DNA of 64,000 nt, from NCBI GenBank assembly GCA_016794465.1, contig JAEUKA010000024.1, forward strand, positions 7,511 through 71,510, in the 5' to 3' direction. A program made the translations under genes and the position numbers. Below are positions 439-60,336 of this stretch, piece after piece; position 1 is the first letter of the stretch; the number at the start of each line of letters is the position of its first letter. The stretch comes from Myxococcales bacterium (GTDB lineage: Bacteria; Myxococcota_A; Polyangia; Palsa-1104; JAEUJZ01). The notes beneath the pieces were generated by a model. That model was given only the letters and a program-made list of their open reading frames with translations. It searched no databases and was not told where the DNA came from.

Positions 439-485
439 GTGCGCGCAATGTGCGCACGCCGTGCGCACGTGGCACTCTGCGCACA
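439..485. promoter_or_regulatory. Three GTGCGCAC-type palindromes at 11-bp phasing (439, 450, 461) plus a fourth copy (478-485); further copy at 531-540. Candidate enhancer-binding-protein UAS
   Basis: Read directly: gtgcgcgc / gtgcgcac / gtgcgcac spaced exactly 11 bp apart, 80-130 bp upstream of a consensus sigma-54 element. Confidence 0.45.
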
Positions 486-567
486 GCGCGCCTAGCACAG
501 GGTGATATCGAGATGCGCGTCAGTCTCATTGTGCGCGCACAGAGCTGAACGCCTTGGTCCAAGGAGC

Positions 568-583
568 TGGCACCGGGCTTGCT
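568..583 (+). promoter_or_regulatory. Sigma-54 (-24/-12) promoter TGGCAC-N5-TTGCT
   Basis: tggcaccgggcttgct matches the RpoN consensus TGGCAC-N5-TTGCW perfectly; ~100 bp upstream of kinase ATG at 681. Confidence 0.55.
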
Positions 584-680
584 CTACCAAGGACGGCGTC
601 GAGTACCCAACCAATGGTGCTCGCCAAAGACGAGGATCGCGGTGGACAGCGGCGAAGCCACAAACAGTCAACAGGACCCG

Positions 681-2030
681 ATGCTCGGCCGCACCGTGAG
701 TCAGTACCGCGTTGTCCGAAAGATCGCCCAAGGCGGCATGGGTGCGATCTATGAAGCAACGCATCTAGAGTCCGGGATTCGCGCTGCTGTCAAAGTGCTG
801 CTGCCGGAGCTTAGCAGTCGCGCCGATGCCGTCTCACGATTCTTCACAGAGGCGAAGGCGACCAGCATGCTGGAACACCCCGCACTGGTGAAGATCTTCG
901 AGCATGGAAAGAGCCCCGATGGCGAAGCCTTCATTGTTATGGAGTACATCGATGGAGAGTCGCTTCGCCAAGCACAGGACAAGACGTACTTCGGCGGCAG
1001 CGCACTCCTGCTCCTTCATCAGATGGCGTCGGGCCTCGCTGTTGCCCATGGCAAGCGGATCATCCACCGAGATCTCAAGCCAGACAACATCATGCTGGTT
1101 TCTGATCCGTCTGCACCTGCCAAAAGAAGAGTCAAGATCCTCGACTTCGGAATCGCCAAGATGCTTCCAGATGGCAGTGCCAAGGAGGCTGCCAATGCAG
1201 CCACTCGCACTGGGACACTGATTGGCACGCCGATGTATATGTCGCCCGAGCAGTGCCGGGCTTCTGCCCCTCCCGATGAGAAGACCGACGTCTATTCACT
1301 CGGAATCATCCTGTATGAAATGCTCTACGGGGAGCCTCCGTTTACATCGGAATCAGCCGGAGAGCTTTTCGCGCTGCAGATGTTTGCAGATCCACCACGC
1401 CTCAAGCAGCGAGTCCCGGCGATTCCGGACCAACTGGATGAGCTCGTACATCGACTCCTTGCGAAGCAACCTGCAACGCGGCCCAGCATGGTGGAGCTGG
1501 CCACTGCACTGGAGAGTATAACGAGCACCGGCCTTGAGGATGGGGCAGCCCAGGACCGCCCCAGCGTTGCTAGCAGTCGTGCCCGGTCAAACCAGGGTGA
1601 AGAGATTGGCTCCACCTCAGGGATCGTCCGAGCACAGCTTCCCAACAACCCGCGGCGAGCAGACCACGGCGAACGGGTTGCAGCGACCTCGCCTAAGAAA
1701 GGAGGTCTCGTTCTCGTCATTCTGTCGGCAACATTTCTATTGGTTGTGATTGCAGTCCTACTCATCCTGCGAAACAGACAACCTGTTGCACCCCCTCCGG
1801 TAGTGACGAATGGAATCCAGCCTCCACCGCCCTCCGCGGCTATGCCAGACGCAGGGACAAATGCAGGAGCTGGTCCGTCGACAACTCTTCCCGCGAGTCC
1901 TCCCCCCAGCACAGCCACTGATCCTGCTGCAAACGGGAAACACAGCAAGAGCGGAAAGTCTGGAAAGGCGAGCCACAAGGCAGTCAAGACGGGGGCTGGA
2001 AACAAGCTCCAAGTCGATCTGTGGAAATAG
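681..2030 (+). CDS. Ser/Thr protein kinase (PpkA/Pkn-like) with C-terminal TM segment and Pro/Ala-rich tail
   Basis: GxGxxG (AQGGMGAIYEA), AVKVL lysine, HRDLKPDN catalytic loop, DFG, PMYMSPE; start chosen at internal Met 681 (ORF 579..2030). Confidence 0.85.
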   Translation: MLGRTVSQYRVVRKIAQGGMGAIYEATHLESGIRAAVKVLLPELSSRADAVSRFFTEAKATSMLEHPALVKIFEHGKSPDGEAFIVMEYIDGESLRQAQDKTYFGGSALLLLHQMASGLAVAHGKRIIHRDLKPDNIMLVSDPSAPAKRRVKILDFGIAKMLPDGSAKEAANAATRTGTLIGTPMYMSPEQCRASAPPDEKTDVYSLGIILYEMLYGEPPFTSESAGELFALQMFADPPRLKQRVPAIPDQLDELVHRLLAKQPATRPSMVELATALESITSTGLEDGAAQDRPSVASSRARSNQGEEIGSTSGIVRAQLPNNPRRADHGERVAATSPKKGGLVLVILSATFLLVVIAVLLILRNRQPVAPPPVVTNGIQPPPPSAAMPDAGTNAGAGPSTTLPASPPPSTATDPAANGKHSKSGKSGKASHKAVKTGAGNKLQVDLWK

Positions 2031-2031
2031 C

Positions 2032-2997
2032 ATGAGCGGGATTTCCCATCTTCTAACCGGATGTATCGCCGGTGGGTTCTGCCTCGCAGCGCCATGTTGG
2101 GCAGAAGAGGAACAGTCCGAGGAAGAACGAGCGCAGCGATTCAAGATTCAGTATGCCCAGGCCGGAAAGGCGTATGCCGCCGGAGACTTCGCTGCAGCCA
2201 TTCACGCACTACAGGCAGCGTATGCGATACAGCCACTGCCCCCTCTGCTGTTTAATATTGCCCAAGCATACCGTCGCATGGAGCAGTGGAGCTCTGCCCG
2301 CGTCTACTTTGAGCTGTATCGCCACGTCGACCTCAACATGCCCAGAGAGACGTCGCTGTCACTCGACACCTTCGTGGCCGAAGCGCGTGAAAAGGAAATC
2401 CTCGCGTACACGCCGAAAGTCGTCGAAAAAACCAAGCTCCTGTACGTTCAGCAAGAGAAACCTCTGCCGCGTTGGCTTCGACCCTTCGGCATCACGACCG
2501 GCGTGCTGGGACTGGGGGCCATTGGCGCAGGTGCGGGCCTTTGGGGGATTCATGGACGGTGTGTGCAAGACGCCGTGGCTCCCGCGCTAGAGTGTGAGCA
2601 GATCTATCAGACACGGACACCAGGCATTGCAATCGTGGCGACCGGAGGCGTGATGCTCGCGCTTGGAGTTGTGACGTTTTCCCTGTCATTCATCAAGCCG
2701 GCCAAGCCGGTAGTGGCTGCGAGCGCGCCTCCAGATCTGTTTTTGCCAACAATCGACAAGGTGGTAGTTCCGAAGACGAGCTCAGCAAAGGACGGATCCG
2801 GAAGAAAGCCAGTCCACAGACCTGTGCTGATCGTTCCGCCCTCGCCTCCTGCGGTAGAGCCACCGCCAACAGGTACTCAAATGGTTCCCAAGATTCTGGA
2901 AACCGTCGTCCCCCCAAATCCGCCGCCTACAGAGCCACCACCAAAGGGCTTTCGCCTGACTGGACGACGGTCGCATCGCCACGGGGGGCAATTGTAA
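2032..2997 (+). CDS. TPR-like membrane-anchored protein (signal peptide, LLFNIAQAYR motif, TM, Pro-rich C-term); paralog of 34150..34854
   Basis: ATG 2 nt after kinase stop; shares FxxAxxxY...LLFNIAQAYR block with minus-strand ORF 34150..34854. Confidence 0.65.
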   Translation: MSGISHLLTGCIAGGFCLAAPCWAEEEQSEEERAQRFKIQYAQAGKAYAAGDFAAAIHALQAAYAIQPLPPLLFNIAQAYRRMEQWSSARVYFELYRHVDLNMPRETSLSLDTFVAEAREKEILAYTPKVVEKTKLLYVQQEKPLPRWLRPFGITTGVLGLGAIGAGAGLWGIHGRCVQDAVAPALECEQIYQTRTPGIAIVATGGVMLALGVVTFSLSFIKPAKPVVAASAPPDLFLPTIDKVVVPKTSSAKDGSGRKPVHRPVLIVPPSPPAVEPPPTGTQMVPKILETVVPPNPPPTEPPPKGFRLTGRRSHRHGGQL

Positions 2998-3088
2998 CAC
3001 ACACAGCTGAGTCGCAAGATTCGCTGTAGAAGGAACGCTCTGGAGAGACGAAAAGCACTCCACTTCTGGTCGCTGCCTCACCGATTGG

Positions 3089-4540
3089 ATGGTCGCAGCA
3101 AAGGAGTCGTTTGTGGATAGACAAATTGGCCCGTACAAGATCGTTCGGTTGATCGGCAGCGGTGGGATGGGCTCCGTCTACGAAGCAATGAATACCCAGA
3201 TCGAACGCCGAGCTGCGATCAAAGTCTTGAGCAAGGACTTTCAGCAGGACGCAGAGTTTGTCCAGCGCTTCTTTAACGAAGCCCGTGCGGTCAACATCAT
3301 CAACCATCCAAGCGTTGTAACTGTTTATGACTTTGGCACCGCAGAGGATGGCTCGCCCTACATCGTGATGGAGTACTTGGAGGGAGAGACGCTTCGCCAG
3401 CGGATGAACAAGAGCGGACGAACGGACCCCGAGCGAGCGATGAAGACCATCCGGCAGGTAGCATCCGGTTTGGCAGCCGCGCACGCGAAAAAAATTGTGC
3501 ATCGTGACCTGAAGCCCGGAAACATTCTGCTGGTTCATGATTCCGACAACGCTGATGGAGAACGGCCCAAGATCCTCGATTTTGGCATCGCCAAGCTGGC
3601 GGCGGATCCAAGTGCAAAGGCGCTGACTCGTGTGGGCGTGTCGATGGGCACGCCAGCGTACATGTCTCCCGAGTTATGCAAGGACGCTAGAGATGTAACT
3701 GATCGAAGCGACGTCTACGCCCTGGGGCTGATTCTGTTCGAAATGCTGGCGGGCGAGCATCCATTCGCGAGTGCACTGAAGGCAGACAGCGCCATGATGG
3801 CATCACACATCGGCCAACCTGCGCCTTCTCTGGACAGCAAGGTTCCCGGAATAGGATCGGACCTTGTGGGTCTGGTCAATCGGATGCTCGCGAAGCAGCC
3901 GGATGCCCGACCGAGCGCAGCAGAAGTGGCCGCCACGCTGGGAAGGTTAGGAGGGTCGTCCACTGGACTTATGCAGGTGATCGACGCCGGCTCCATACCT
4001 CTGCCATTACACACCAATCGAGCATTGCCCACCGCGGACGCAGCATCGGACGTCGGTCTGTCTGCCGTACTCAAACCGCTGCAGGAAAACCGGGGTCTGG
4101 TCATTGGCGCCGGTGTCATGCTGCTCTTGGGAGTCATCGGGATTGTCGTGATTCTACGAGTGATACTCGCAGGTGCGCCATCCGTTCCCCAGCCGGTCCG
4201 CTGGAGCATTCAAAGTGAACCGCCAGGTGCCGATGTCCTGGATGCCACTGGGCAGATGCTGGGAAAGACTCCTTTTGTCCATCAACACGCTCGTGGAACC
4301 GCAGTCGAAATCTTGTCGATTCGCAAGGAAGGATTTAGCGAAGCACGAGTTCCCTGTGACAGCAGCAAAGACATCAATCAGATGGTGACACTCGTCGCAC
4401 AGGCAAAGCCGGCGGACAAGAAAGTGGAACCAGAGCCCGGTACCGATAGCCACACATCAACCGAGATCAAAAGGCCAAGTTCCCGGCGACACAAAAAGGA
4501 ACGTGCTTCGAAGAAGGAGAAAAAGTCTCGGTCTCACTAG
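3089..4540 (+). CDS. Ser/Thr protein kinase with C-terminal TM and extracytoplasmic domain
   Basis: IGSGGMGSVYEA, AIKVL, HRDLKPGN, DFG, PAYMSPE. Confidence 0.85.
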   Translation: MVAAKESFVDRQIGPYKIVRLIGSGGMGSVYEAMNTQIERRAAIKVLSKDFQQDAEFVQRFFNEARAVNIINHPSVVTVYDFGTAEDGSPYIVMEYLEGETLRQRMNKSGRTDPERAMKTIRQVASGLAAAHAKKIVHRDLKPGNILLVHDSDNADGERPKILDFGIAKLAADPSAKALTRVGVSMGTPAYMSPELCKDARDVTDRSDVYALGLILFEMLAGEHPFASALKADSAMMASHIGQPAPSLDSKVPGIGSDLVGLVNRMLAKQPDARPSAAEVAATLGRLGGSSTGLMQVIDAGSIPLPLHTNRALPTADAASDVGLSAVLKPLQENRGLVIGAGVMLLLGVIGIVVILRVILAGAPSVPQPVRWSIQSEPPGADVLDATGQMLGKTPFVHQHARGTAVEILSIRKEGFSEARVPCDSSKDINQMVTLVAQAKPADKKVEPEPGTDSHTSTEIKRPSSRRHKKERASKKEKKSRSH

Positions 4541-4601
4541 TCAGACAAGCGTTTGAATAATCTCAGGAATCGACTTCGAGTTCGGAGGTTCGTAGTTCCG
4601 G

Positions 4602-7600
4602 ATGGTACTTGGGTGGGCGGTAGCGCTGGACGGATCAGTTGGCACAGGTAGCGAGGCTCCGCGGTTGCCGAGCACTTGGCTCCTTGTCGTGCTGGTGCTC
4701 TTCTTCCTGCTGCTCATTGTAGCCGGCATCGGCTTGATCTATTTGATCTTTCGGCGGCGTGGCCAGACCGAGCGACCGACACAGGGCGGCCAGAATCAAG
4801 CGACCCCCAAGCGACTTCTGTCAATCTGGCGACAGTTCCTTGAGCCACTCCCAGTCAGTGTTCAGGTCGCCATTCAGGACTACGATCACTTCGTCGTCTT
4901 CGGTGATCCGGGAGTTGGAAAAAGTGCGCTGATCAGTCGACGTGTGGACTGGCAAGGGCAAGCCAGTCAGTTTCTGCCAAGCCATACGGCCGATCCGCTG
5001 CTTCAGATCTACCTGGGCAGTCGCACGATTGTCCAAGAGGTTTCCTCAACGCTTTTGCAGGCGGCCAATCGGGAAGCTCACGAGGCCTTTCGAAAGCTGT
5101 GGAAGAGATCACTGCCATCTGCGCTCTTGCCAACGGTTGTCATCGTTCTCAAGATCTCGACCCTGGCGAACAGTAGCCCAGATGTGCTGCGCCAGCAGGC
5201 CAAGCTGATTCGAGGAAAGATCAATCTGCTGGCAGAACTGTTCGGAGCGCCCATCCTGACTCGTTTGTGCCTGACCAATATGGAGCGCATCTCGGGTTAT
5301 TCCGAGTTCTCTCGGTTCCTCCACAAGAACCGGATCCCGCTGCTGCTCGATGCCAGCGGGGATGCCCAAAGTAGCCTTGGAAGCAGTCTTCAGTCCTATG
5401 AAAAGCATCTGCCACGGGCCCTGACCACCATGCCCGTTGGACCCTTTGAGGCTAGCATAGAGGTCCTAAACTCTGCTGAAGAGCTGATGACACCTGTGCG
5501 CAGTTTCATCGCCGCACTGGTCGAAGGCTCGGTGGCTTCGCTGCGCCCTGACGTCCAGAGTGTCTACTTCTTTTCACTCCCCGCCGATGAAGACGTTGGC
5601 AATCCCTTCGAGCCCGTGGTCAATAAAGGGGCGCGAGCACCCTCTCTGTTTCTACGTTGGCTGCGCTGGTTGGCTGGACTTGGCATTCGACCGATCCATG
5701 CACTCCTTAGTCTCTTGTTACTCGCAGTCGGAGTCGGCCCGATTTGGTATGTCAGTCACCGCCATGGCCAGAAGGTTCAGCGCGCTAGCACGATGGCCGG
5801 AGAGTTTGAACGAGCGGTGCGCCGTGCCCAAGAGTCACTCTCCAATCCGAGTGAATCAGACGTAGTGCGTACCAGTGAACGGGCAGCAGAGCAAGCGCTC
5901 TCGCTCGTTTTGGACGAAGAAACTCGCCTGCGCCCTTTGAAACTGCTTCTGCTTCGTGAGAAAAATGAAGCGCGGCAGCACTTTGTGGACGGACTGCGAC
6001 AAGGGTATCTGCGCCCTGTGCTGGAAGCAGGTGTCCGTCAACGAGCACGCGACAAGATCCTCTACAGCCTTGCTACGCTTTACGCCGCGCAAGACAACGC
6101 GCTGGGAACGCTGGTGAAGACGCAGCGCACCGACTTTGCAACGACTCTGGGTCTGCCAGCAGATGTACTGAGTGCATACGTTGAAAATAGCCCGCACGCC
6201 TGGACCGACAAGGCACTGCTGCTGCTTCCTCCTTTGCCATCCGAGTCAGCGCACTGGCCGACTAGCGATCTCCGTCCTTGGCAAGAGTTTGTGCAGACAA
6301 TTGCTCGTGCCATTCCACAGCCTTCGATTGCAGGAGATCAGCTGGAGCGGCTACGCAAGCAGGCAGAACACCTCCGCGAGACGATAGAGCGAGTGCGCAA
6401 GGCGCACGTGATGCGCCGCGTTTATCAGATGCTGGCAGAAGAGACGCCCATCGACATGAACAAGCTGTTTGGTGGAGAGGTCGGTGTGCTCACCCCCGAT
6501 CCGTGGCTCACCGACAACATGGCCAACCTGGAGCTCCTGCTCAAGCTGATCCGTGACAGCTCGGCCCAGTCAGGTCGCCACGACCACCTGAGTCTGTATC
6601 AGCTACTCCGTTGGGTGAATGCACTCGGCGCCAGCAAGGAAGCGCTTGCGCATGGGCCTGGCATTTCTCCGCTGTTCGAAAATGACCTGGTACACTTCGC
6701 ATTCCCGAGCAGCAAGGTGTACGAGATCAGCGAGCGGGGCTGGCTCGATCTGCTCTTGCGCAGCCGCAAGCGCTGGCTCCTGTCGCATCAGATCAGCAAC
6801 GTTCGGCTCCACGACAAACACTCCCATCGACGTCGCTGCTGCGATTGTGTGTCGGAAAGTCGCCGGAAGCGACGGCACTGTGTGCGATGCGAACGGACAG
6901 AAGATGACTCTGAACGGAAGTCATGTTTGCCCCCACGGACGGAGAGTCGCAGAGTGGATTTGCCTCCCTTTGGTCCTGAAGAGCTGCGGCCCAGACTCGC
7001 CAACCTGATGACCAAGGGGGAGACCCCCAACGAGCACCTGGGAGACGAGTACAACCGCGCGGTCTTCGATAATGAAGTTCTACCACTGGTACGTGAGCTA
7101 CGTAAGGCCGTGGCAGAGAGCAAGGCGTTGGGTCCGGAAGAAAAGATCCGGCTGACTCGGCTCGTACGATCGGAAATCGAAGGATATGCGCGGAAGTACT
7201 GCAGTGGGCTCATGCGTTACTACCTGAGCTACCACTTTCACGCGCACGACCAAGGGAGTCCGGTCACTTCTCTGCATTCGGCACTGCTGGATCTGACCAA
7301 GCCCGGCTCTCGCTTTGTATCGCACCTGTCGAGCGTTGCAGAAAACGCAGCACTTGCTGGGCTCGATGATCCATATCTGAAGCCACTGGCAGAGTGTTTG
7401 GCCGAGTTCCGCCCACTCATCAAAGTGGTGAATGCGGATCTGCTCAAGCGGAAGAGTGCGAAGCCAAGTGGAGGGGTGCTGGAGCCAAAAGAAAACAAGA
7501 GCTCAGGCTCAGACAGTCAAGATCGCACCCCAGGGAAGGAGGCCGCAGCAGGTCAAGGGACGGGCAGTTCTCCGGACAAGGAGACCACAGGACGGAAGGA

Positions 7601-8651
7601 CTCTCTTGACCCCCCTGCTCCATCTGAAGACGATCAAAACAAAGGTCTGGATCCCTACCTTGAATCGATTGCGAAGCTGGCCACTGAGCTGGATTCAAAC
7701 TGGGGACCGGCTCCCGGCAAAGGAACAGACAAAGCGACCGAAAAAAGATCAAGCCTTCCAGACCAGCTCGGTCCACTGGGCAAGAGCGCTCTGCTCATGG
7801 CCCGAGAAGACAGCGCAGGAGAGCTCTCTCCTCGCCAGAGTGCGGAAGTCTTCCTCGACAAAACGGGACTGATCGGGTCCATGCGTCGTCCCTTCATCGA
7901 ACCATTCGATGCAGTGTTCAAACGGGGTTCACAGGAAGTAGAGAGTGCGCTGGCCCAGCACTGGGAAAAAGAAACGGTGGCCATGGTAACTCCTCTGTTT
8001 GAACGCTTCCCATTCAATCAAGCGGCAGAAAGAGAAGTCGCACCGGCCGAGCTAGATCTGATCAGCGAGTCCAGCGGAGCCTTCTTTGCGGATGTCAGAT
8101 CGTTTTACGACTACGCCATCGCGCAACAGGGAGGAAACTATGTAAGTCGACGAGGAGCACTGGGCTCGTTTGCGCTTCCCAAGGATCTGCTGCCAACCGT
8201 CAATCGGGTCGCCAAGTTGGCACGATTGTTGTTTGACGGAAAAGGAGCACGCCAGCCGCTGCGTCTGTCTGTTCGAGGTGTACCAGGGAAGAGAGCGGGT
8301 GATGGAAAATCGGTGCAGCCGACCATGGGTTTTTTACAACTGGGGAAGACATCTGTCTTCGGTTTTAACCAGCGCGCAACTGGAGAACAGATCTCCATCG
8401 ACTGGTGGAATCAGGGCGTGGCAGTGGTCGGTATCGAAAGCACTGCAGGTCGGTCTGGACGAAGACACACCCAGACAATCGAAGTGGCGGACTCTTCCTG
8501 GAGCTTATTTCGACTCCTGCAAAAGAGCACGATTGAGGGCGACGGAGAGAGCACCTGGCGAATCAACGACGACGGGGCAGGAGAGGTACAGGTGATTCGC
8601 TTTGCGATTCAGCCCGACCCCTGGAGTCTGTTTCGGATCACGACACGCTGA
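4602..8651 (+). CDS. tssM: T6SS membrane complex protein TssM (IcmF-like)
   Basis: 1,349 aa, N-terminal TM helix then Walker A GDPGVGKSALI, additional TM hairpin, large periplasmic C-terminal region; stop overlaps tssJ start (TGATG). Confidence 0.7.
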   Translation: MVLGWAVALDGSVGTGSEAPRLPSTWLLVVLVLFFLLLIVAGIGLIYLIFRRRGQTERPTQGGQNQATPKRLLSIWRQFLEPLPVSVQVAIQDYDHFVVFGDPGVGKSALISRRVDWQGQASQFLPSHTADPLLQIYLGSRTIVQEVSSTLLQAANREAHEAFRKLWKRSLPSALLPTVVIVLKISTLANSSPDVLRQQAKLIRGKINLLAELFGAPILTRLCLTNMERISGYSEFSRFLHKNRIPLLLDASGDAQSSLGSSLQSYEKHLPRALTTMPVGPFEASIEVLNSAEELMTPVRSFIAALVEGSVASLRPDVQSVYFFSLPADEDVGNPFEPVVNKGARAPSLFLRWLRWLAGLGIRPIHALLSLLLLAVGVGPIWYVSHRHGQKVQRASTMAGEFERAVRRAQESLSNPSESDVVRTSERAAEQALSLVLDEETRLRPLKLLLLREKNEARQHFVDGLRQGYLRPVLEAGVRQRARDKILYSLATLYAAQDNALGTLVKTQRTDFATTLGLPADVLSAYVENSPHAWTDKALLLLPPLPSESAHWPTSDLRPWQEFVQTIARAIPQPSIAGDQLERLRKQAEHLRETIERVRKAHVMRRVYQMLAEETPIDMNKLFGGEVGVLTPDPWLTDNMANLELLLKLIRDSSAQSGRHDHLSLYQLLRWVNALGASKEALAHGPGISPLFENDLVHFAFPSSKVYEISERGWLDLLLRSRKRWLLSHQISNVRLHDKHSHRRRCCDCVSESRRKRRHCVRCERTEDDSERKSCLPPRTESRRVDLPPFGPEELRPRLANLMTKGETPNEHLGDEYNRAVFDNEVLPLVRELRKAVAESKALGPEEKIRLTRLVRSEIEGYARKYCSGLMRYYLSYHFHAHDQGSPVTSLHSALLDLTKPGSRFVSHLSSVAENAALAGLDDPYLKPLAECLAEFRPLIKVVNADLLKRKSAKPSGGVLEPKENKSSGSDSQDRTPGKEAAAGQGTGSSPDKETTGRKDSLDPPAPSEDDQNKGLDPYLESIAKLATELDSNWGPAPGKGTDKATEKRSSLPDQLGPLGKSALLMAREDSAGELSPRQSAEVFLDKTGLIGSMRRPFIEPFDAVFKRGSQEVESALAQHWEKETVAMVTPLFERFPFNQAAEREVAPAELDLISESSGAFFADVRSFYDYAIAQQGGNYVSRRGALGSFALPKDLLPTVNRVAKLARLLFDGKGARQPLRLSVRGVPGKRAGDGKSVQPTMGFLQLGKTSVFGFNQRATGEQISIDWWNQGVAVVGIESTAGRSGRRHTQTIEVADSSWSLFRLLQKSTIEGDGESTWRINDDGAGEVQVIRFAIQPDPWSLFRITTR

Positions 8652-9127
8652 TGAGCCACGCTACACGCTCAAACATAGCAGACCGGCAGCAAGGAAGCCT
8701 CTGGCTCGTGGTCATGCTTGGTCTCCTTGTGTGTGCGCAGACTGGCTGCACGACCTGGCGATTCTTTATTAATCTCCGCGGTATGGAGGACTCCAATCAA
8801 GGACGCCCCCTGCAGGTTTTGGTCCGGAGTGTGCAAGCAGAGAGCTTTCGGACCGAGACCTATGGTGAACTCGCCCAGCTGCTCATAAAACCCGATCCCA
8901 GCGTGCTCAGAGTCGTGACGGTAGAACCCAGTCAAAAGCGTCGACTCTGGATCAGGGCGCCGAGCAACAAGCCGGTGGCGCTGTACTTCCTCTTTAGTGC
9001 GACCACCGGCAGTTGGAAGATGCTCTTGCCCCCACCACTGCCCTGGTCTGTGTCGGTGCCGCTCGGTCGAAACGGTGTGCTGGTTCCTGACGTGAAGGAA
9101 TGTCGGCTCGGTCGAGGTCTGCCATGA
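8651..9127 (+). CDS. tssJ: T6SS outer-membrane lipoprotein TssJ
   Basis: 158 aa, signal peptide with Cys (LLVCAQTGC), RPLQVLVRSVQ...F block resembling TssJ core; immediately downstream of tssM. Confidence 0.55.
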   Translation: MSHATRSNIADRQQGSLWLVVMLGLLVCAQTGCTTWRFFINLRGMEDSNQGRPLQVLVRSVQAESFRTETYGELAQLLIKPDPSVLRVVTVEPSQKRRLWIRAPSNKPVALYFLFSATTGSWKMLLPPPLPWSVSVPLGRNGVLVPDVKECRLGRGLP

Positions 9128-9168
9128 CTATTCCTCAACCAATTCACAGAACCAGCGGGTCCTGCAAC

Positions 9169-9198
9169 GTGCGCACAGCGTGCGCAGATTGTGCGCCC
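9169..9198. promoter_or_regulatory. Three GTGCGCA(C)-type half-palindromes at 11-bp phasing (9169, 9180, 9191); candidate UAS for tssBC promoter
   Basis: cgtgcgcacag cgtgcgcagat tgtgcgcccac; same motif and phasing as 439-468. Confidence 0.4.
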
Positions 9199-9307
9199 AC
9201 ACAACTGAAATACAACATGCTCAATCTCCTCGACGGAGTTCCACAGAGTTTTGCCGCCGTGGTTGTATCGCTGTGGTCAGCATCACTGCAAGCGACCGCC
9301 CGGCGGA

Positions 9308-9322
9308 TGGCATGTTCGCTGC
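9308..9322 (+). promoter_or_regulatory. Sigma-54-like -24/-12 element TGGCAT-N5-CTGC upstream of tssB
   Basis: GG and GC correctly spaced (tggcatgttcgctgc); ~110 bp downstream of the palindrome triplet, 44 bp upstream of GTG start with GGAGG RBS. Confidence 0.35.
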
Positions 9323-9365
9323 TAGAGAGCGTAGCCCCAAACCAGGACCCCCATAGGAGGAAACC

Positions 9366-9911
9366 GTGAAGTCCATTCAACAACTGATCCCGCGTTCTCG
9401 CGTCAATTTGAGTTACCACACCATGGTCGAAGGGCAGCTTAGGGAAGTGGAATTGCCCTTCCGCGTGATCGTTCTGGCCGACCTGTCTCATGGATCGTCC
9501 ACCGACCGCGAGCTGGACATGGAGACGCGTCGCCTGCGAAATCTCGACGGAAAGAACATCGATGAGTTGATGGCCAATATGAAGATCACGCTGAGCCTCA
9601 AAGCAAAGAACTTCATCGATCCCGAAGCCGAGCAGCTCCCAGTCGAGGTTCCCATCAAGGACCGTAAGTCGTTTAATCCTGCGGAGGTCGCAAACGCGGT
9701 GCCGCAGATTCGCGCCCTGCTGCTGCTGCGCAAGCTGCTGCTTGAGATGCAAGCTCAGGTTGATAACCGCAAGGAAGTGCGCAACCTCATGCAGCAGGTG
9801 TTCGCCAACAAGGAAGAGCTTGCTCAGCTCCGCAAGGAACTGGAACCGTACGCCGGTTATCGCCTGCCAGCTCGTAAGGAGCTCGCCCCAGCGAGCGCAC
9901 CAGTCACCTAA
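9366..9911 (+). CDS. tssB: T6SS contractile sheath small subunit TssB (VipA/ImpB)
   Basis: 181 aa; LPFRVIVLADLS motif typical of TssB; GTG start with RBS. Confidence 0.85.
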   Translation: MKSIQQLIPRSRVNLSYHTMVEGQLREVELPFRVIVLADLSHGSSTDRELDMETRRLRNLDGKNIDELMANMKITLSLKAKNFIDPEAEQLPVEVPIKDRKSFNPAEVANAVPQIRALLLLRKLLLEMQAQVDNRKEVRNLMQQVFANKEELAQLRKELEPYAGYRLPARKELAPASAPVT

Positions 9912-9982: not shown

Positions 9983-11470
9983 ATGGCTGAAACCCAGATT
10001 GCTAAGGAGCCGCGCATCTTGAGTCGGCTCCTCGAAGCCGCTCAGCTTGACAAGCAAGTCAAGAGCCTGACCCCCATGATCAAGGACCGCTTTGTCGCCA
10101 GCCGTGAAGACGTGTCGGACGAGGAAAGACTGCTGTCCGGTCTCGCGGCGATCCTCTACAACCTGGATGAGTCCCAGGAGAAGTACGAGAAGGGCAAGGT
10201 CCTCGACATCGTACGCCGCATTGATCAGACGATCAATGATCAGCTAAATGACATCTTGCATCATCCTACGTTTCAGGATCTTGAAGCGACCTGGCGCGGC
10301 ATCAACGGCTTGGTAGAAAATACGAACTTCGATTCAAACATCCAAATTGCGCTCCTTGATGTCAGCAAAGAAGAGCTCCATCAGGACTTCGACTCGAACT
10401 CGACTGACGTCTTCAGTGGGGCGCTGTTTAGCAAGGTGTACAAGACAGAGTACGATCAGTACGGCGGCAAGCCCTATGGCTGCATGATCGGCCTGTACGA
10501 GTTTAGCACCAACCCATCGGATCTATTCTGGCTGCGCAACATGTCTAAGGTAGCCGCAGCTGCCCACGCTCCCTTTGTCACCGCGGCGAATGCAGCATTC
10601 TTTGGCTGTAAATCGATTGAGGAGGTCGAGGCGATTCGGGACCTCGACGGTGTATTTAACCAGCCGCAGTTCGGACAATGGCAAGCACTTCGCGACACGC
10701 CAGAGGCATCCTACGTCGGACTTGCATTCCCGCGCTATGTGGTGCGACTGCCCTGGAACCCAGAGACAAATCAGAGCCCAGGCCTCCAGTTCACAGAGGT
10801 GACCACGGGTCAGCGTGACAAATATCTGTGGGGCAACTCTGCACTGCTCCTTGGACGCAACCTGATCCGCTCGTTCGAGCAGTCTGGATGGTGTCAGTAC
10901 ATTCGCGGCCCAGCGGGTGGCGGTCAGATCAAGGGACTCCCTGTGGACACCTTCAACGTCCGGGGCGAGCAGGAAGTCCGGATTCCGGTGGAGATGTATA
11001 TTCCGGACTACCGCGAGCTAGAGTTTGCACGAAACGGCATCAGCTCGTTGGTCCATCGCAAGGGAACGGCGGAAGCCGTGTTCTTCAGCGTTCCTGCCAT
11101 TAAGGCGCCGAAGGAATTCCGCGACCCGAAGGACACCGAGAACTCTCAACTGGTGGCCAACCTGGCCTACACGTTCTCTGTCTCGCGCATCGCTCACTAC
11201 TTCAAGAGCATCGTCCGCGACAACATTGGTGACAACTCCGATGCGAAGTCGCTCAAGGAGCAGCTGACAGCGTGGCTGGAGCAGTACATCACCAAGTCGG
11301 TGAGTCCCAATGATGCGACGATGCGTCGCTTCCCCTTCAAGGCTGCAGAGGTTCAGGTCGAGCCAGTGCCAGGACGAATCGGATACTACGACTGCAAGGT
11401 CGCCATCCTGCCGCACAGTCTGTTCGAAGGGATGGACATCGAGTTGCGGCTCGATTCGCGCCTCGGTTAA
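9983..11470 (+). CDS. tssC: T6SS contractile sheath large subunit TssC (VipB/ImpC)
   Basis: 495 aa; conserved TssC blocks (DLFWLRNMSKVAAAAHAPF, RYVVRLPW, ARNGIS); AAGGAG RBS. Confidence 0.9.
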   Translation: MAETQIAKEPRILSRLLEAAQLDKQVKSLTPMIKDRFVASREDVSDEERLLSGLAAILYNLDESQEKYEKGKVLDIVRRIDQTINDQLNDILHHPTFQDLEATWRGINGLVENTNFDSNIQIALLDVSKEELHQDFDSNSTDVFSGALFSKVYKTEYDQYGGKPYGCMIGLYEFSTNPSDLFWLRNMSKVAAAAHAPFVTAANAAFFGCKSIEEVEAIRDLDGVFNQPQFGQWQALRDTPEASYVGLAFPRYVVRLPWNPETNQSPGLQFTEVTTGQRDKYLWGNSALLLGRNLIRSFEQSGWCQYIRGPAGGGQIKGLPVDTFNVRGEQEVRIPVEMYIPDYRELEFARNGISSLVHRKGTAEAVFFSVPAIKAPKEFRDPKDTENSQLVANLAYTFSVSRIAHYFKSIVRDNIGDNSDAKSLKEQLTAWLEQYITKSVSPNDATMRRFPFKAAEVQVEPVPGRIGYYDCKVAILPHSLFEGMDIELRLDSRLG

Positions 11471-13420: not shown

Positions 13421-13807
13421 ATGTCGTTCCTCAACCGCTTTCTCCCAGAAAAACCTCAAGACGACGAGTTCCGGAGTGTCGTCCGGAATCTCCTGTATCT
13501 ACTCAACTCACGCCGCGGATTCGGATCACTTTTATGCAGCTTCGGAGCTGCCGACTACCTTCGCGACTTGAGTGGACGGACGACGGCACAAACACTGCTT
13601 CGTGAAATCACAGATACCATTCAGATCTACGAACCGCGGCTGCGGGTCCTCAGTCTGAAGACGGTAGGACGTGACAGTGCGTTACGACTCTTTATCGAGC
13701 TGCGCGGGACACTCCTCCTAAACTACTGGGGCGTTCCCTGTCGGCTTCTCATCCTTTTCCACATGCCAACGGGCGCCGTGACCATTGAGGGGAGCGATGG
13801 ATCGTAA
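13421..13807 (+). CDS. tssE: T6SS baseplate protein TssE (gp25-like)
   Basis: 128 aa; VRNLLYLLNSRRG gp25/TssE-like block. Confidence 0.7.
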   Translation: MSFLNRFLPEKPQDDEFRSVVRNLLYLLNSRRGFGSLLCSFGAADYLRDLSGRTTAQTLLREITDTIQIYEPRLRVLSLKTVGRDSALRLFIELRGTLLLNYWGVPCRLLILFHMPTGAVTIEGSDGS

Positions 13808-16800
13808 ATCGTTCGGGAAGGAGCCACCAACGCTTGATGAGGAGCTAGCCGGTGAGACCCCACGCTTTCACGAAAAGCTGGGATTTGTCTTCGAGATTGT
13901 CCAGGTCGTTCCGCTGATGGTCGCGCCTGGTCCGCCTCCGCCTCCGGTCGTTCTGACCGAGATGGACAACATTGAGCTGGCGACCAAGCCCCCGAACCGA
14001 CCTCCCCCTGGGGCCGTGCAGACCGGGAGTCCCATCATGCCGCCTTTCCTCGGCCAGCTCCCGCCGATCAAGATAGAGGGCCACGACATCACGTCACTGT
14101 CCGTAGACATGGCTACACACGGCTTCACCGGCCGGATGCGATTCCGGGTCTCGGAGACCAAGCTTCTCGGTGATGTGAAGGACAAGGACAAAGTCGCGAA
14201 GGCCTTTCGTAGCCAAAACATCTTGATGTTCAAGCTGTGCATACGGCCCGAGCATAGTGATCTCCGCGGACTGGCACCGCTTACTCCCGTGATGGTTCCG
14301 CAGGTCGTGACGCAGATACCGGTGCCCGTAGTCGTTCCGGTCAATGAGAGCATTCCACTGGAGCTGCAGCTACTGCAGCAGCTCCCCGCAGAGCTAGCGC
14401 TCGAACTGCAACAGCAGCGGACGCTGATCCAGCAACAGCTCCTGGTGGTGCAACAGCAGCTCCTGGTGAATCAGCAAGAGCGGATGGCGATTATGCAGGA
14501 GTCGCACCCTCCCGCAGGTTCAGTTGAAACTCCGCAGAACCTGCAGATACTCGCAAAGCAGCGCCAACTGGATCTGGCTGCCAATGCCAAGAAGCAGCAG
14601 GAGCTGATCAAGCAGCAGCAAAGATACATTGAGGAGCTGTCAAGCCTGGCGAATCCCCCAAACAACAGCGCACTGCTTGCGGCTCTCCAAAACATCGCTC
14701 CACCAGGCGTACTCCCCCCCAAGCTCGATCCGGTCATCGCGCCGATTCCGGCCATCGTAGGGACTCCGACGCTGCTGGAGCCTGGAATCTCTCCCAATGG
14801 TCCTCTGGTGCCGATTGAGATGCTGCTGACGGGAGTCATCACTTCTCATACGGTTTCCGAACATACCAGCTATGAGGCCTCCGACATCATCGTTAGTTTT
14901 CGGGAATACTGCATCGAATTTGGTGACCCTGCCCAGGCGCTATGGAAGGAACACTTTCCGATCGCACTCTACACGAACAGCTCAGTTTCGGACGTCATCA
15001 AGAAGAACGCCAATCTGCTCATCAATATCAAGGTCAAGAGCAGCCAGCTATCTCAGACTCAGGACCAGATCTTCCTCAGTCTGAACAAGCAGAATCGCCA
15101 AGCGGAACGTGCCAGCTTCTATGACTGGCTCATCTGGCGTCTGGACCAGACCGACCACACCTTGAGTTACGACTACTCCCAGAACATTTATCAAGTGTTC
15201 GAACGACCGAAGCGACCAAAGCCTTTTCAAGTCTTTGCCGCTGACATTGCCAAGATCATCACGACGCGTCCGCTGGGTCGCTTTTATCAAGAGACGCTGA
15301 TGAACGACAGCGCCCGAATCGCAACCACCCAGCCCATTCTCAACCTGCTGGCGCTGTCGCCTTTGCGTCAGGATCGGTGGTTTCACACACCGACACCACT
15401 GGAGTTCGCGACAGAGTATGCCAAGCGGTTTGCCAGCTTCAAGCAGCCATCACCTTCATTTGTACTATACTTTAAGCGATTCCCATCGCGTCCCTTCCCG
15501 CCTGGAGTAGGAATCGACTTTCATCTCGATCCGATCGATTTTCCCAATCATAAATTCGTCATTCCTAAGGATGCGAAGAAGACCAACCGCGTCACCCGGA
15601 TGCAGCTCCAGATTGAGACGACTGAGTCCGACGTCCTGCCACGATTCAAGGGAAGAAGCACCGGAATGTTCCGTTGCTCTCTTGGCGTTCACCTTCAATC
15701 CGGCCGCGATGCGGAGCCACGTCTACCAACGTATACCCAGCCTAGCTATCCGATGGAAGTCGAGGGCATCGTCTACACCATGATTGGAATGCCGGGCACG
15801 CAGGTCTGGGAAAACCAGACCGACCTTCTCACGGGCCAACAGTACTACGTCATTCAGCTTCCGGTGTTTGGTTGTCAGCAGGTCAAAACGCCGTTCGTCC
15901 CGAATCAACAGCCTGGGCAGTTCTTTTTTCCCGCATACCGCAAGGAACGCGTTCTCGTCCAGCTGTACTACGATCGCTCCGAGCTGGCTCGCTATCTAGA
16001 CTGGCGTCCTATGAATACGCTGCCCAGTCAGATTCAGGGCAACCAGCTCATGCTGGGACAGGATTTCACAAATGGGGCCAAACACACCCTCATATACGGA
16101 GGGGATGTCCCAGAATACATCATTCAGCGGCAGCGTTATAGCAGTGTCCAGTTTATTCGATTTTATCAGAGCGGAATCGAACAGAAGTCGGTTGTTCTGA
16201 CTCCCAAGGTTGACCTAGCGATTCAGCGCGCCACCTTGGCAGCGAGTCAGGCGCTTGAGATCCAGTGTGCGGGGGGAGCAGGAGCCATCGCTGGAGGAGG
16301 CGGCGGCGGTGGCGGTGGAAGCGGTGGCGGCGCGAAGGCCGAAGCGAAGTCAACGACCCGGGCTCGAGCAAAGCGAGTGAGCGGGAAGGTACAAGCCAAA
16401 ACGTCCGTACATGCGACAGCCGCCGTAGCAGCGGTCTCAACTGACTTCACCCACTCGAAGCAGATTCCGAAACCCCTGCACCGAACGCCAAGCAAGGCGA
16501 TGCCTCTGGTACAAAACGTTGGCGCTGCTCGGACCATGATGCGGCACGCTGAACAAGCCCAGGCCGAGTCGATGGGCGTCGACGTTGCAGTTGCGGAGCG
16601 TCCCAGAGATGCCGGTCCCAAGGATCTTCCTGGGCGGAAGTCTCATTCGGCGGGCAAGCACTCGCATGCTGATCGCGGCGCGGGCAAAAAGCCACCACCT
16701 CACAAGACCAAGGGAAGAGGAGGAGGCGGCGGCGGTGGCGGCAACCGGGAAGAGTTACCGCCTGCTCCCAGACCGGGTACGCCTACCGAAGGACACCCCG

Positions 16801-19800
16801 AGCAGCCGATGAACTGTCGCTTCGGCATGGACTCTGGTAGTGGCACCGCACTGGAGATGGAGAGTCCAGCTGGTGACGCAAAGCACGCCGTCCTGATCGG
16901 AAAGCAAGGCGTCACGATCGAAACCGAGGTCGCTGGGGCCAAATCGATTTTCGAGCAGCACGGGGACGCCATCTCGATTCGTTGCCGAGAATTTACCATC
17001 GACGCGGACAATATTCGCGTCCGCTCCCAGACCCACTCCAGCTATCAAAGCCTTGGGCACATGACGCTGTCGAGTCTCTCGAACATGACCGTGCAGACTC
17101 CGTCCAGTCTCAATCTCACGGCGATGAACGGAGTGACGCTCAATGCGCTGACTGTACTTATCAATGCACTCCGAACGATTCGCTTGCTCGGACTGACGGG
17201 CGGAATTGGGACATTTGCAGCAGGGCCGGGAGTGCATTCCTTCGGAGCAGAGATCAGCTCGACAGGTCTGCAAAATACAATGACCGGGGTCACGACAAAC
17301 CTGCACGGGGCAACGGTCAAGATCGGTCCGCCTCCCATGAGCTCAGGCCCGGCTGCCAGCTCTGGTTCTGACAGCGAATCAAGCGCTGGCTCGGTTGCAA
17401 ACTCCAGCTTCGACTCAAAGACTGAACAGGGCACTGACAAGGCCTCAGGGTCGCCTGCCAGTCCGCAGGCACCAAGCAATGGCGACCCGGAAACAGACAG
17501 CAAACAGCATGCGGCAGAGGTCTTCCCTTTCGATCCAGAACATGGCTTTGCGGGTCTTGGGGGTCGGATTCACCATCGCAAACACAAGCATCCCCACGGA
17601 CACAAGCATCATCACAAGCGGAATCACGGAGACCAACACCGTCCAGAGGAAGAGCACACACAGTCAACCCTGCCGATCTCACCTTTTGACAAGCCCGGAG
17701 GAGTTCCCAATTCGAGCGTCGATCCGACCGATGAGTCAGTGCCCACTACCGCAGAGGGGTCGGCACAACCAGATCACCGCGCGCAGCACCATGAGAGTTC
17801 GGGACACAGCTCAGAGTCGACGTCCCTCGGTCAAACAAGCGAAGAACCTCCGTCATCCGATGCTTCGATGGACAGTCAGGACTTAAAGCCAAAAGGACCG
17901 CCATCTGCTCGGAATTTTGTACCGTCTGGACAGCGTGATGCCCTCACCCCAATGCCTCCCAGACCGCATGAACCGCCTCGTCCTGTGCGCACAGATCCAC
18001 AAGATCCGGAGCAGACCCCGGCTCTCAAGCAGACTGTATCGGACTCCACCAGCGCTGTAGAGCAAGCGGCCGCCCGCATCGGAGCCTCTCTGTTTGGTCC
18101 TGTTGACCGGGATGGACCTGTGGCTCGTCAAAAGCCAGGCAGTCTGCGTGCACTTGCTACTGAGATCGCAAAAATCGAGGCGATTGTGTCTGCCTGTTCT
18201 TCGGGTCCGAGCAGTTCCTCCACCATTTCCTCTGCTGTGAAGCCACCCTCTGCCAGACCTTCCGACCAGGATGCAACGAAGGGTGCAAATCAGAATCCGC
18301 GAGCTGAGTACACGTCAACAAAGCCGCCAAGCCAGGTCGCAGGTTCCGACCATACGTCAGTCCGCTACTCCGTTCGCACCCCACCCGAGGATGGAACCAA
18401 TCCGCTTCAGGAGGCACCGCATCACCACGGCAGTTCGCGCATTCCTGGGGCAACGCCCCCTGCGGGTCATTCCAATAGTCATCATCGCCACTCGAAGGCG
18501 CATCATCAGCACTCGAAGGCGCATCATCAGAAGGCACACAAAATCGCTCACGACCCAAAACCCCAAACCGCAGCCACAGATCCACAGGTCTCGGCACCTG
18601 AGACAGCACAAGCGCCAACAGCTCCGGCAAGGTCATCTGAGAATCAAGTCAACGCGGGATTGCTACAAGCAGCGGGGTCTCCATCCGCGGCGCTCAGACC
18701 CACCGAGAGTGGCGATGCAGGCGCTGGTGGCAATCACGACCGAGGACTCTTGCAGCGCGGTGCCTCTGCCCAGAGCCCATTCGAAGTATTCCGCAGATTG
18801 ATCTCTCTCTTTTCTCACATGACGTGGGACGGACAAACACCGCTGGGAATGCTGCATACATTTCAATCTGCAGCGGCTGCCGCACCCCGTCCCCTCGCGG
18901 AGATGCACGAGCTACTGCTCGCATTCCAACAGAAATCTGATCATGCCGCCTGGGCTCCTAGCGTGGATTCGGAAGTTCCCCCAGAACAGCTTTTGAGTTC
19001 TCTCCAGCAATATCTGGAGGAGCTCGGACGGAATCTCCCTGCGCATGGTGCAGCAACTCCCCCAGCAGCAGCTTCGACAGCTTCGTCGTCGAATCCAGAC
19101 CGGCAGCCCGAGGACTCTGAGCCCAAACCAACGAAGCCACAGCAGCCGCAGAGCACTGAAGTCCCAGGTCTACAAGCCGCCATGGTGTCAGACCTTCTTT
19201 CCTCTCTGCAATCAGACAGTCTGGATGAACGAATCAACCGGGATCCCTCGCTGATTCCAACCGTGCTGCAAGCAACGCTGGCTGCACAAGCCGGCGCACT
19301 TACACCTGAATTGGGCGCTCCGCTGCTCGTTCTGGCGGAGTCAATCCTCGAATCACGAACCGATGTGGCGGTGCTGCTGGCATTGATGGGAACCGCTGCC
19401 CAAGCCGGGCTACTGCCGAGTGAAATCGCACCGCATGCAATCGCCGGTCAGCAACTGGCGGTACAGAGTAATCTGGATCTTGCAGAGCTGCGCGCTCAAG
19501 TTACCCAGGCCGATACTCCCGGTTCGACCCGAGATACCAAGCCCTCGGATGGTACGAACACAAATCAAAGGTACCAACCGCTGATTGATTTGGCGCTGGC
19601 AGCTGCAGACAATGGCTTCCTACCGAGATCCTCTGCTCTGACGATTGCCGAGAATCCGGGCAGCGGGCTGCTGCGCTTGCCAGAGCTGCTGGCTGTTCGG
19701 GAGGTGTTGCAGTATGCCGCACGCATTGTGGCTGGAAAGCCTCTTCCAGAACCACCAGCCGGTCCCCTCGTTCAGATTCGTAGAAACACGCTCATATCGA

Positions 19801-55204: not shown

Positions 55205-55277
55205 GGGGCTGTAGCTCAACTGGTAGAGCGCTTGAATGGCATTCAAGAGGTAACGAGTTCGACCCTCGTCAGCTCCA
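55205..55277 (+). tRNA. tRNA-Ala (anticodon GGC)
   Basis: Cloverleaf folded by hand: G3:U70 Ala identity pair, A73 discriminator, anticodon loop AUGGCAU, TTCGA T-loop; 73 nt, no encoded CCA. Confidence 0.85.
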
Positions 55278-55284
55278 CATCAAA

Positions 55285-55313
55285 CCCCGTCGGTGAAGAC
55301 CGATGGGGTTTTT
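55285..55313 (+). terminator. Rho-independent terminator downstream of tRNA-Ala
   Basis: ccccgtcggt-gaag-accgatgggg stem-loop followed by TTTTT. Confidence 0.7.
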
Positions 55314-55383
55314 GCTTTCTGGGGGGTCGGTTTTGGGCTGTGACCAGCTGTGGACCACTTTTTGTGGACCACAAACGCAACGG

Positions 55384-56496: not shown

Positions 56497-56504
56497 GATT
56501 CCCC

Positions 56505-57857: not shown

Positions 57858-57882
57858 ACCGCTCTCCCCCAATCATCGCAGC

Positions 57883-57945
57883 GGCCAACCGGCCAAGTGG
57901 CCAAGTGGCCAAGCGGCCAAGGTCGCGAAGGTTGGCCAGCATCAT
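57883..57945. repeat. Short tandem GGCCAAG/TTGGCC heptamer repeats (4-5 copies) immediately 3' of the ATPase/primase genes; candidate ori iterons
   Basis: cggccaaccggccaagtggccaagtggccaagcggccaaggtcgcgaaggttggcc. Confidence 0.4.
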
Positions 57946-60204: not shown

Positions 60205-60336
60205 GAGTCAATCCGGGCCTGTTCCGCAGCACTGAGTTCCTCATCGGCCCCCACCTCATCCGGCGACGACTCATCGAGAAGGCCGATAAGCCACGGTCGA
60301 GCAGCGCGCAGCAAGCGATCCGCTATTCGTTCTGAC

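Follow-up and report, generated by a model that had tools for sequence, protein, structure and literature searches.

A predicted sigma-54 promoter with a phased three-box enhancer ahead of the type VI secretion genes tssBC in an uncultured Myxococcota lineage

In a 64-kb stretch of Myxococcota DNA (contig JAEUKA010000024.1; "the window" means this whole stretch, and coordinates are window positions unless a related locus is named), the segment at 9168-9323, ahead of tssB and tssC, the sheath genes of a type VI secretion system (T6SS), probably controls the operon that these genes open. We read it as a sigma-54-type -24/-12 promoter combined with an enhancer of three boxes some 110-140 bp upstream, which would be bound by a divergently encoded enhancer-binding protein (EBP). 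That the element at 9308-9323 is a sigma-54 promoter we regard as very probable. The same design would also drive a kinase-tssM-iglE operon and, in the reverse direction, the activator's own gene. The case is an in silico one, built on motifs and their statistics, conservation, a change of box sequence between clades, gene linkage and domain content, and it is from these that we infer binding, RpoN dependence, a link between the kinases and an FHA-like domain, and feedback.

A shared architecture at two promoters

The tssB control region occupies 238 bp between a gene for an IglE_N lipoprotein (stop at 9127) and tssB. A first-pass annotation of the window had described a triplet of 11-bp-phased boxes here, and direct reading bears this out, with GTGCGC cores beginning at 9169, 9180 and 9191; only the limits of the triplet need adjusting, from 9169-9198 to 9168-9200, since its start was off by one base and its end by two. 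These boxes (UAS-2) are the presumed enhancer of the tssB promoter, P_tssB. The same annotation had placed a sigma-54-like TGGCAT-N5-CTGC element about 110 bp past the boxes and 44 nt before the tssB GTG, with tssBC downstream; the element is found as described, and Pfam identifies the downstream genes as tssB/vipA followed by tssC (Table 1). Exactly 10 nt separate the GG and GC of P_tssB, a spacing identical to that of the kinase-operon promoter, P_kin (569-70 and 581-82), and the sequence TGGCATG-TTCG-CTGCT agrees with the consensus TGGCACG-N4-TTGCW at 10/12 positions. The element covers the interval from 58 to 44 nt ahead of the GTG, and the boxes lie 108-140 bp upstream of its -24 part, inside the range of roughly 80-200 bp sought for an enhancer. 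Transcription of tssB would be expected to start near 9333.

The second site with this layout lies upstream of the operon that P_kin is predicted to drive, which runs kinase-TPR-kinase-tssM-like-iglE-like from GTG 642 to 9127. The boxes of its enhancer, UAS-1, have orthologous counterparts in the related loci L005, L008, L010, L012 and L020, and boxes of the TGTGCGCACA type stand upstream of the kinase promoters of the window, L005, L008, L010 and L012. P_kin itself is kept as TGGCAC-N5-TTGCT in L005, L008, L010 and L012, and its L020 form is TGGCAT-N5-TTGCG. A third sigma-54-like element, P_bEBP, points into the activator gene, as do its counterparts in L005, L010, L012, L016 and L020, and this orientation suggests that the activator gene is autoregulated from the shared UAS-1. 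Besides the enhancer, the window has an extra box close to P_kin, and palindromic boxes near to or abutting the -24 part of the kinase promoter also occur in L008 (109-121), L017 (3897-3926) and L020 (9480-9455, minus strand). Because they are too close for looping, these extra boxes may serve repression or fine tuning.

The statistics of the window locate the signal in the arrangement of the boxes. Since the lone heptamer GTGCGCA is not enriched overall (23 matches versus 19.8 expected), what stands out is that the boxes cluster in phase and are paired with the promoter motif. The pattern GTGCGC-N5-GTGCGC-N5-GTGCGC has two matches in 64 kb, at 439 and 9169, and none in 100/100 shuffles, and GCGC-N7-GCGC-N7-GCGC has two matches against 0.11 expected. 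The strict promoter pattern TGGCAY-N5-YTGCW matches only at 568 and 9308, with 0.37 matches expected per 128 kb (both strands of the 64 kb). The window thus has exactly two sites, those of tssB and the kinase operon, at which the box motif and the independent promoter motif coincide with the same order and a comparable spacing, in agreement with the earlier suggestion that the two operons share one architecture. Two matches to GGCAC-N6-TGCT, in tssE (13585-13599, plus strand) and in the tssM-like gene (6212-6226, plus strand), are kept only in 98%-identical loci and are probably due to chance.

The architecture recurs in about ten related Myxococcota lineages (TssB 55-98% identical), which have three to four phased GCGC-core boxes and a -24/-12 element at both places. 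The loci compared come from a TssB scan of genome contigs (L001 and L002; Myxococcales metagenome-assembled genome, TssB 64% identical), from a metagenome scan (L003, the second locus of that scan being without upstream DNA) and, for the majority of the comparative material, from look-ups of exact TssB homologues (L005-L021). L014, a frameshift-ridden long-read contig, was used for motif presence only, the upstream DNA of L018 is mostly N-masked, and the locus of P0038 came without DNA. Upstream of tssB, each locus with readable DNA shows three to four GCGC-core boxes with an 11-bp period, and a -24/-12 element precedes tssB in 13/13 loci examined. In 12 of these 13 the form TGGC-N8-TGC is found 54-82 nt ahead of the tssB start, and in L016, the most distant of them, at 106 or 121 nt. 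Across the related loci of about 20 kb, the triple-GCGC pattern matches only upstream of tssB and of the kinase operon, and the strict promoter pattern almost only at orthologous sites.

Around the boxes and the -24/-12 elements the flanking DNA has diverged past alignability. When the five near-clade intergenic regions are aligned with MAFFT, the aligned conserved columns are confined to the boxes and to the block of ribosome-binding site (RBS) and start codon; the -24/-12 element is present in all five sequences, yet MAFFT set those of L008 and L012 out of register. Although the spacer sequence is not conserved, the first box core stays 137-141 bp away from the -24 GG in the five near-clade lineages. 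We considered whether enhancer and promoter are separated by an IHF site, and claim none, as the alignment has no conserved block there.

The boxes change between clades, and this change points to a factor common to the two promoters. Boxes of the TGTGCGCACAG type occur at both promoters in the near clade, and the alternative form is TGCGCGAGCAA. L020, the alternative-box lineage for which both promoters were recovered, carries an identical triple box, ACTGCGCGAGCA-ATGCGCGAGCA-ATGCGCGAGCA, at both of them, as does L021. Related boxes of the TGCGCGAGC type are found upstream of tssB in L001, L017 and L018, and L015 has the same box inverted. A clade-specific change of box that appears in its alternative form at both L020 promoters would be expected if a single DNA-binding protein read both, and we consider that there is a good probability that a single, locally encoded factor does so. 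The proposal in the first-pass annotation of one activator for both operons gains support from these paired triple boxes and from the activator-family gene linked to the cluster in five lineages. The recognition helix of that activator reads ISRDQLNRLIRRE (SRDQL) in lineages with TGCGCA boxes and (I/M)SRHQLNR(L/M)I in L020 and L016, which have TGCGCG boxes; over three lineage types, this correlation between helix and box is no more than suggestive.

Table 1. Features of the two control regions and their neighbourhood in the window, followed by the -24/-12 elements read ahead of tssB in related loci
Feature	Position or locus	Strand	Sequence or remark
UAS-2, three 11-bp-phased boxes	9168-9178, 9179-9189, 9190-9200	.	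cGTGCGCAcag, cGTGCGCAgat, tGTGCGCCcac, read directly; repeat family D2
P_tssB, putative sigma-54-type -24/-12 element	9308-9323	+	TGGCATgttcgCTGCT; TGGCAT-gttcg-CTGCT; GG 9309-9310, GC 9321-9322
RBS; tssB start	9355-9361; 9366-9368	+	AGGAGGA; GTG; block unchanged across the near-clade alignment
tssB; tssC, first genes of the sheath/baseplate operon	9366-9911; 9983-11470	+	Pfam T6SS_VipA E 1.3e-36; VipB E 2.5e-108
UAS-1 boxes	437-448, 449-459, 460-470, 476-486	.	TTGTGCGCGCAA, TGTGCGCACGC, CGTGCGCACGT, TCTGCGCACAG; GTGCGC cores at 439, 450 and 461, 11 bp apart
Promoter-proximal extra box	529-542	.	TTGTGCGCGCACAG; 26 bp upstream of the P_kin -24 element
P_kin, putative sigma-54-type element	568-583	+	TGGCACcgggcTTGCT; TGGCACC-GGGC-TTGCT, 11/12 consensus positions
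P_bEBP, sigma-54-like element	210-195	-	cGGCACaatggTTGCT; directed into the activator gene
5' end of the gene for the EBP (FHA-like, AAA+ and helix-turn-helix, HTH, domains), cut by the window edge	180-1 (first 60 codons)	-	annotated ATG at 180
Element upstream of tssB	L003		TGGCATggtcgCTGCT
Element upstream of tssB	L008		TGGCATagccaGTGCT
Element upstream of tssB	L010		TGGCACgggcgATGCT
Element upstream of tssB	L012		TGGCATggtcaGTGCT
Element upstream of tssB	L015		TGGCACgttgcCTGCT
Element upstream of tssB	L017		TGGCACgcacgCTGCT
Element upstream of tssB	L019		TGGCACgtcggGTGCT
Element upstream of tssB	L001, L020		TGGCACgtcggCTGCT

The linked activator and the proposed circuit

The boxes are probably read by the EBP that is encoded divergently from the kinase operon. 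Its gene enters the window with its 5' end only: the translation of 180-1 (minus strand), MRQHGRD...TECLALVLIWSAREPHRVGETALLRPDH, is the N-terminus of P0057 (534 aa) and aligns with the EBP of L010, whose Met1 corresponds to GTG 108-106, the likely true start. Apart from this N-terminal fragment, none of the large open reading frames (ORFs) in the 64-kb window was found to encode Sigma54_activat. In five lineages a Sigma54_activat gene adjoins the cluster, and it stands divergently beside the kinase operon in L006/L007, L010, L012/L013 and L020/L021. In L016 (7845-10001), where TssB identity is 55%, the activator gene and tssB point directly away from each other without an intervening kinase operon, and the 560-bp intergenic region holds TGTGCGCGCA boxes and sigma-54-like elements in both directions. 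In L020 (11700-14995), the activator gene is followed by a gene for an IpgD-like phosphoinositide phosphatase, which may be a eukaryote-directed effector, and then by a second FHA-type EBP with a near-canonical GCFTGA loop, about 2 kb from the activator.

The domain content of the activator is that of an AAA+ regulator with a DNA-binding C-terminal part and, as its putative sensor, a divergent FHA-like domain. Pfam finds Sigma54_activat (PF00158) in 57/57 family members (E 1.3e-34 in P0057) and the Fis-type HTH_8 in 56/57 (best E 6.3e-8), the latter being marginal in P0057 itself (20.2 bits versus a cut-off of 22). The Walker A (GESGSGKE) and Walker B (LFLDEIGD) motifs and the arginine-finger region are intact, and NCBIfam returned only generic sub-threshold matches (NorR, NtrC and others). 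In an AlphaFold model of the activator (predicted local distance difference test score, pLDDT, 87), the N-terminal domain is beta-rich at high pLDDT. Foldseek matched the AAA+ domain to NtrX, FleQ, NtrC1, ZraR, DmpR and PspF, with a TM-score to the target of about 0.8 (NtrC1, FleQ, ZraR). As the full-length model gave AAA+ matches only, the N-terminal domain was addressed by profile search: the top 15 PDB matches to a profile of the N-terminal 170 residues are all FHA domains (aprataxin, GarA, FhaA, OdhI, PNKP), at weak E values of 0.009-1.6. Pfam FHA is found in 8/57 members (best E 1.4e-4) and not above cut-off in P0057, and G66-R67, S138-R139-x-Q141 and N164-G165, to be compared with the phosphothreonine-binding G-R, S-x-x-H and N-G of FHA domains, are invariant or nearly so. 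An FHA-like N-terminus together with two Ser/Thr kinases in the regulated operon points to an activator that is probably switched by threonine phosphorylation.

These elements can be put together into a circuit. Each HTH of the activator would read one GCGC-core box, with the boxes one helical turn (11 bp) apart; because the GCGC core is self-complementary, the array forms a direct repeat and an inverted one at once. The boxes would align the DNA-binding domains on one face of the helix, allowing the AAA+ hexamer to nucleate, and DNA looping could then carry the hexamer to the closed complex of RNA polymerase and sigma-54 waiting at the -24/-12 element, which would be opened by ATP hydrolysis. 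The FHA-like domain may take its input from the two co-regulated Ser/Thr kinases, and positive feedback on P_bEBP, P_kin and P_tssB would switch on the whole T6SS. We lean slightly towards the locally encoded factor itself remodelling sigma-54. The broader proposition, namely that a Myxococcota EBP family with the loop motif NFPNPGM (at least 115 cluster representatives have it or a close variant) activates sigma-54, couples Ser/Thr-kinase signalling to a Francisella-like T6SS and does so with positive feedback at three promoters, is more tentative, and we hold it to be somewhat less probable than its opposite.

The contact loop and competing explanations

The most important caveat concerns the loop through which an EBP is expected to contact sigma-54. 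In nearly all of the 115 homologues with a readable loop, L1 of the activator is LFGN[KR][KR]N[FY]PNPGM[ED]ER in place of LFGHEKGAFTGA, and a few of the most distant homologues differ at single positions. In P0057 (family P0052-P0171), the loop covers residues 287-302, equals the canonical loop in length and retains an aromatic residue. Residues 287-307 form the most conserved block of the protein: 7 of these positions are invariant and 9 nearly so where the alignment as a whole has 44% mean identity, and this conservation argues for a conserved partner contact. GAFTGA is, however, regarded as essential for contact with sigma-54, and EBP homologues that have lost it (TyrR, DhaR, HupR, HsfA, PhhR, NtrX and VpsR) act with sigma-70 (PMC3162934, PMC6158489), so that the rule from the literature predicts sigma-70 use for the linked activator as well. 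Francke et al. counted about 110 homologues with deviating motifs, among which a change of Thr4 to Pro is preferred (PMC3162934), and these may include the NFPNPGM family. A literature search found no publication mentioning NFPNPG, and none for GAFTGA together with FHA. As GAFTGA is replaced, we do not file the activator as a canonical EBP; the replacement lowers the claim that it is one, and not the claim that the promoters function in a sigma-54-like way. Either NFPNPGM is an alternative contact with sigma-54, or a different, canonical EBP fires the promoters.

Several further points join the N[FY]PNPG loop of the linked activator in weighing against a sigma-54 unit served by its divergent EBP. 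The number of boxes, three, is odd for a protein expected to bind as dimers, and the extra boxes of the window, L008, L017 and L020 are too near the -24 part of P_kin to act by looping. The scores behind the FHA assignment are weak, and NtrX, an atypical EBP, is among the activator's best structural matches. The DNA behind the analysis consists of the 64-kb window and short metagenomic contigs, so that an rpoN gene is presumed, and the related loci share common ancestry and are consequently not statistically independent.

The main competing explanation keeps the sigma-54 dependence of the promoters and changes the protein that fires them: a canonical GAFTGA EBP encoded elsewhere would be the activator, and the linked NFPNPGM protein would occupy the boxes as a modulator, a repressor or a sigma-70-type activator, or would bind nothing at this locus. 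We consider this unlikely, though several points favour it. The replacement of GAFTGA extends throughout the linked family, and by the literature rule just cited such proteins do not activate sigma-54; the Myxococcota are rich in EBPs, and the second FHA-type EBP of L020 encodes its GCFTGA loop a mere 2 kb away; and boxes abutting a -24 element resemble operator sites more than enhancers. Set against this, neither the surroundings of the cluster in the other lineages nor the 64-kb window has a conserved second EBP, and the main boxes lie at a typical enhancer distance with conserved spacing. The replaced loop is also full-length, still aromatic and the most conserved block of a protein with intact Walker motifs and arginine-finger region.

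An improbable explanation is that the likeness to a -24/-12 element is fortuitous or vestigial, and that transcripts of the tssB operon come from a sigma-70-family holoenzyme or from kinase-operon read-through, with the boxes serving as operators of an ordinary activator or repressor, as with atypical EBPs such as NtrX, VpsR and TyrR. The atypical loop of the linked regulator would suit the EBPs of the sigma-70 type (PMC6158489). Neither control region yielded a terminator, and its absence between the iglE-like stop (9127) and tssB makes read-through possible. A scan for a sigma-70-like -35/-10 pair found none in the tssB or the kinase control region, which speaks against this explanation, although the scan used a simple E. 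coli-type consensus that promoters of GC-rich Myxococcota could escape. A further objection is that three promoter positions preserve GG-N10-GC, flanked by TGGCA and TGC, across lineages and amid intergenic DNA that is otherwise unalignable, and that so few matches to the strict motif are expected by chance. The Rfam gathering scan placed no RNA family near the control region, its sole match being a tRNA at 55205.

Finally, we give very little credence to the phased boxes being a generic repeat or low-complexity element (REP-like or a GC-rich microsatellite) of no regulatory role: GCGC-rich sequence is common in a GC-rich genome and the heptamer GTGCGCA is not enriched, but the phased triple is confined to two promoter regions in 64 kb and to orthologous positions in related loci, and a copy number of three to four and the 11-bp period are conserved while the unit changes by clade, in L020 at both sites.

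The surrounding cluster and comparison with known systems

The operon ahead of the tssB control region consists of a Ser/Thr kinase gene (GTG 642, RBS GAGGA), genes for a TPR protein and a second kinase, a tssM-like gene (4602-8651) and the IglE_N lipoprotein gene (8651-9127). After the control region come tssB, tssC, a gene for a 200-aa protein, tssK, tssE, a gene for a 2632-aa protein, tssF, tssL and, further on, tssG. This region (8651-28721) has several Francisella-like traits: it encodes the IglE_N lipoprotein and a 1349-aa protein that is weakly TssM-like, and tssB, tssC, the gene for the 200-aa protein and tssK follow one another in the manner of iglABCD. A ClpV was not detected there, and neither Pfam nor the PDB gave a sequence match to the 200-aa protein. 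The 2632-aa ORF between tssE and tssF (13785-21683, plus strand) is without a Pfam domain, and its counterparts differ widely in length: L001 has 1497 aa, L008 has 2032 aa, and both L005 and L006 have >2500 aa.

Five genes for Hanks-type Ser/Thr kinases lie in the 64 kb (642-4540; 34826-35920, minus strand; 47555-50128; 51842-53230, minus strand), one of them apparently truncated to its C-lobe. A PP2C phosphatase gene (39551-40384) is found about 11 kb beyond tssG, the last T6SS gene identified, which ends at 28721, and a serine recombinase gene with Resolvase and Recombinase domains (31865-33043, minus strand) about 3 kb downstream of the same end. The region at 55205-63536 looks like a mobile element integrated at a tRNA, with a tRNA gene (55205-55277), a tyrosine integrase gene (55384-56496, minus strand), two XRE-type HTH genes, and AAA_25, primase-like and Gp49-like genes.

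Control of T6SS operons by RpoN and an EBP encoded in the cluster is known from VasH (Vibrio cholerae, V. fischeri, Aeromonas) and from Sfa2 of the Pseudomonas aeruginosa H2-T6SS (Bernard et al. 2011; PMC3439928; PMC10482370). As in those systems, a gene of the AAA+ sigma-54-activator family lies in or beside the T6SS cluster (in five lineages and, by its 5' end, in the window), -24/-12 promoters are predicted in silico before structural operons, and several operons would fall under one local activator. Here, however, the hosts are uncultured Myxococcota (Polyangia-like metagenome-assembled genomes) rather than Gammaproteobacteria, the T6SS is Francisella-like, the sensor is FHA-like, NFPNPGM takes the place of GAFTGA, the boxes are three and phased at 11 bp, and two Ser/Thr kinases belong to the regulated operon. 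The likeness to VasH and Sfa2 is one of arrangement, and we claim no orthology.

The EBPs of Myxococcus xanthus, a member of the same phylum, offer a second comparison. FHA-domain EBPs were reportedly described in M. xanthus by Jelsbak, Givskov and Kaiser in 2005. Features held in common with the M. xanthus EBPs are the consensus TGGCACG-N4-TTGC(T/A), several short tandem repeats upstream of the promoter, autoregulation of the EBP gene (here predicted), and an FHA or FHA-like sensor domain, which hints at Ser/Thr-kinase input. In M. xanthus, the EBP Nla28 recognises three to five tandem 8-bp half-sites, CT[C/G]CG[C/G]AG, per promoter (PMC9765219). The locus described here differs in its box, GTGCGCAC or TGCGCGAGCA, in its strict 11-bp phasing, in having a T6SS rather than developmental genes as its target, and in the non-canonical L1.

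A link between threonine phosphorylation and T6SS is likewise established, in the PpkA-Fha1-PppA pathway of P. aeruginosa, Serratia and Agrobacterium, where the FHA protein acts post-translationally on assembly (PMC10482370). The Myxococcota cluster resembles that pathway in encoding Hanks-type Ser/Thr kinases together with genes of the T6SS membrane complex and in having an FHA-type domain as the probable reader of phospho-threonine. Here, in contrast to Fha1, a transcription activator carries the FHA-like domain as a fusion, and it is on transcription that the signal would act. Two kinases are present in the cluster, and neither a separate FHA protein of the Fha1 type nor a cluster-encoded PP2C was found. 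Should the proposed circuit hold, it would be a transcriptional version of the T6SS threonine-phosphorylation pathway.

With the atypical EBPs (TyrR, PhhR, HupR, HsfA, NtrX, VpsR and DhaR), the activator shares the Sigma54_activat AAA+ fold and an L1 without GAFTGA; those proteins act at sigma-70 promoters, and several of them have degenerate Walker motifs or loop deletions (PMC6158489, PMC3162934). The Myxococcota protein departs from them in its full-length and strongly conserved loop, its intact Walker A and B motifs, and presumed targets with conserved -24/-12 elements. If it does drive these promoters, a whole family would be escaping tools that dismiss EBPs without GAFTGA as sigma-70 regulators, NFPNPGM would give the sigma-54 contact loop a second solution, and the accepted requirements on that loop would need revision.

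Taken by itself, the promoter call is of an expected kind in a new lineage, since T6SS control through sigma-54 and an EBP has been established in Vibrio and Pseudomonas. What the locus adds is a new way of joining known features, together with a non-canonical loop. It yields a complete and testable circuit for the T6SS of uncultured Myxococcota, with three promoters, one type of enhancer, a candidate activator and two candidate input kinases, and the paired change of boxes at two promoters between clades amounts to a natural specificity-swap experiment.

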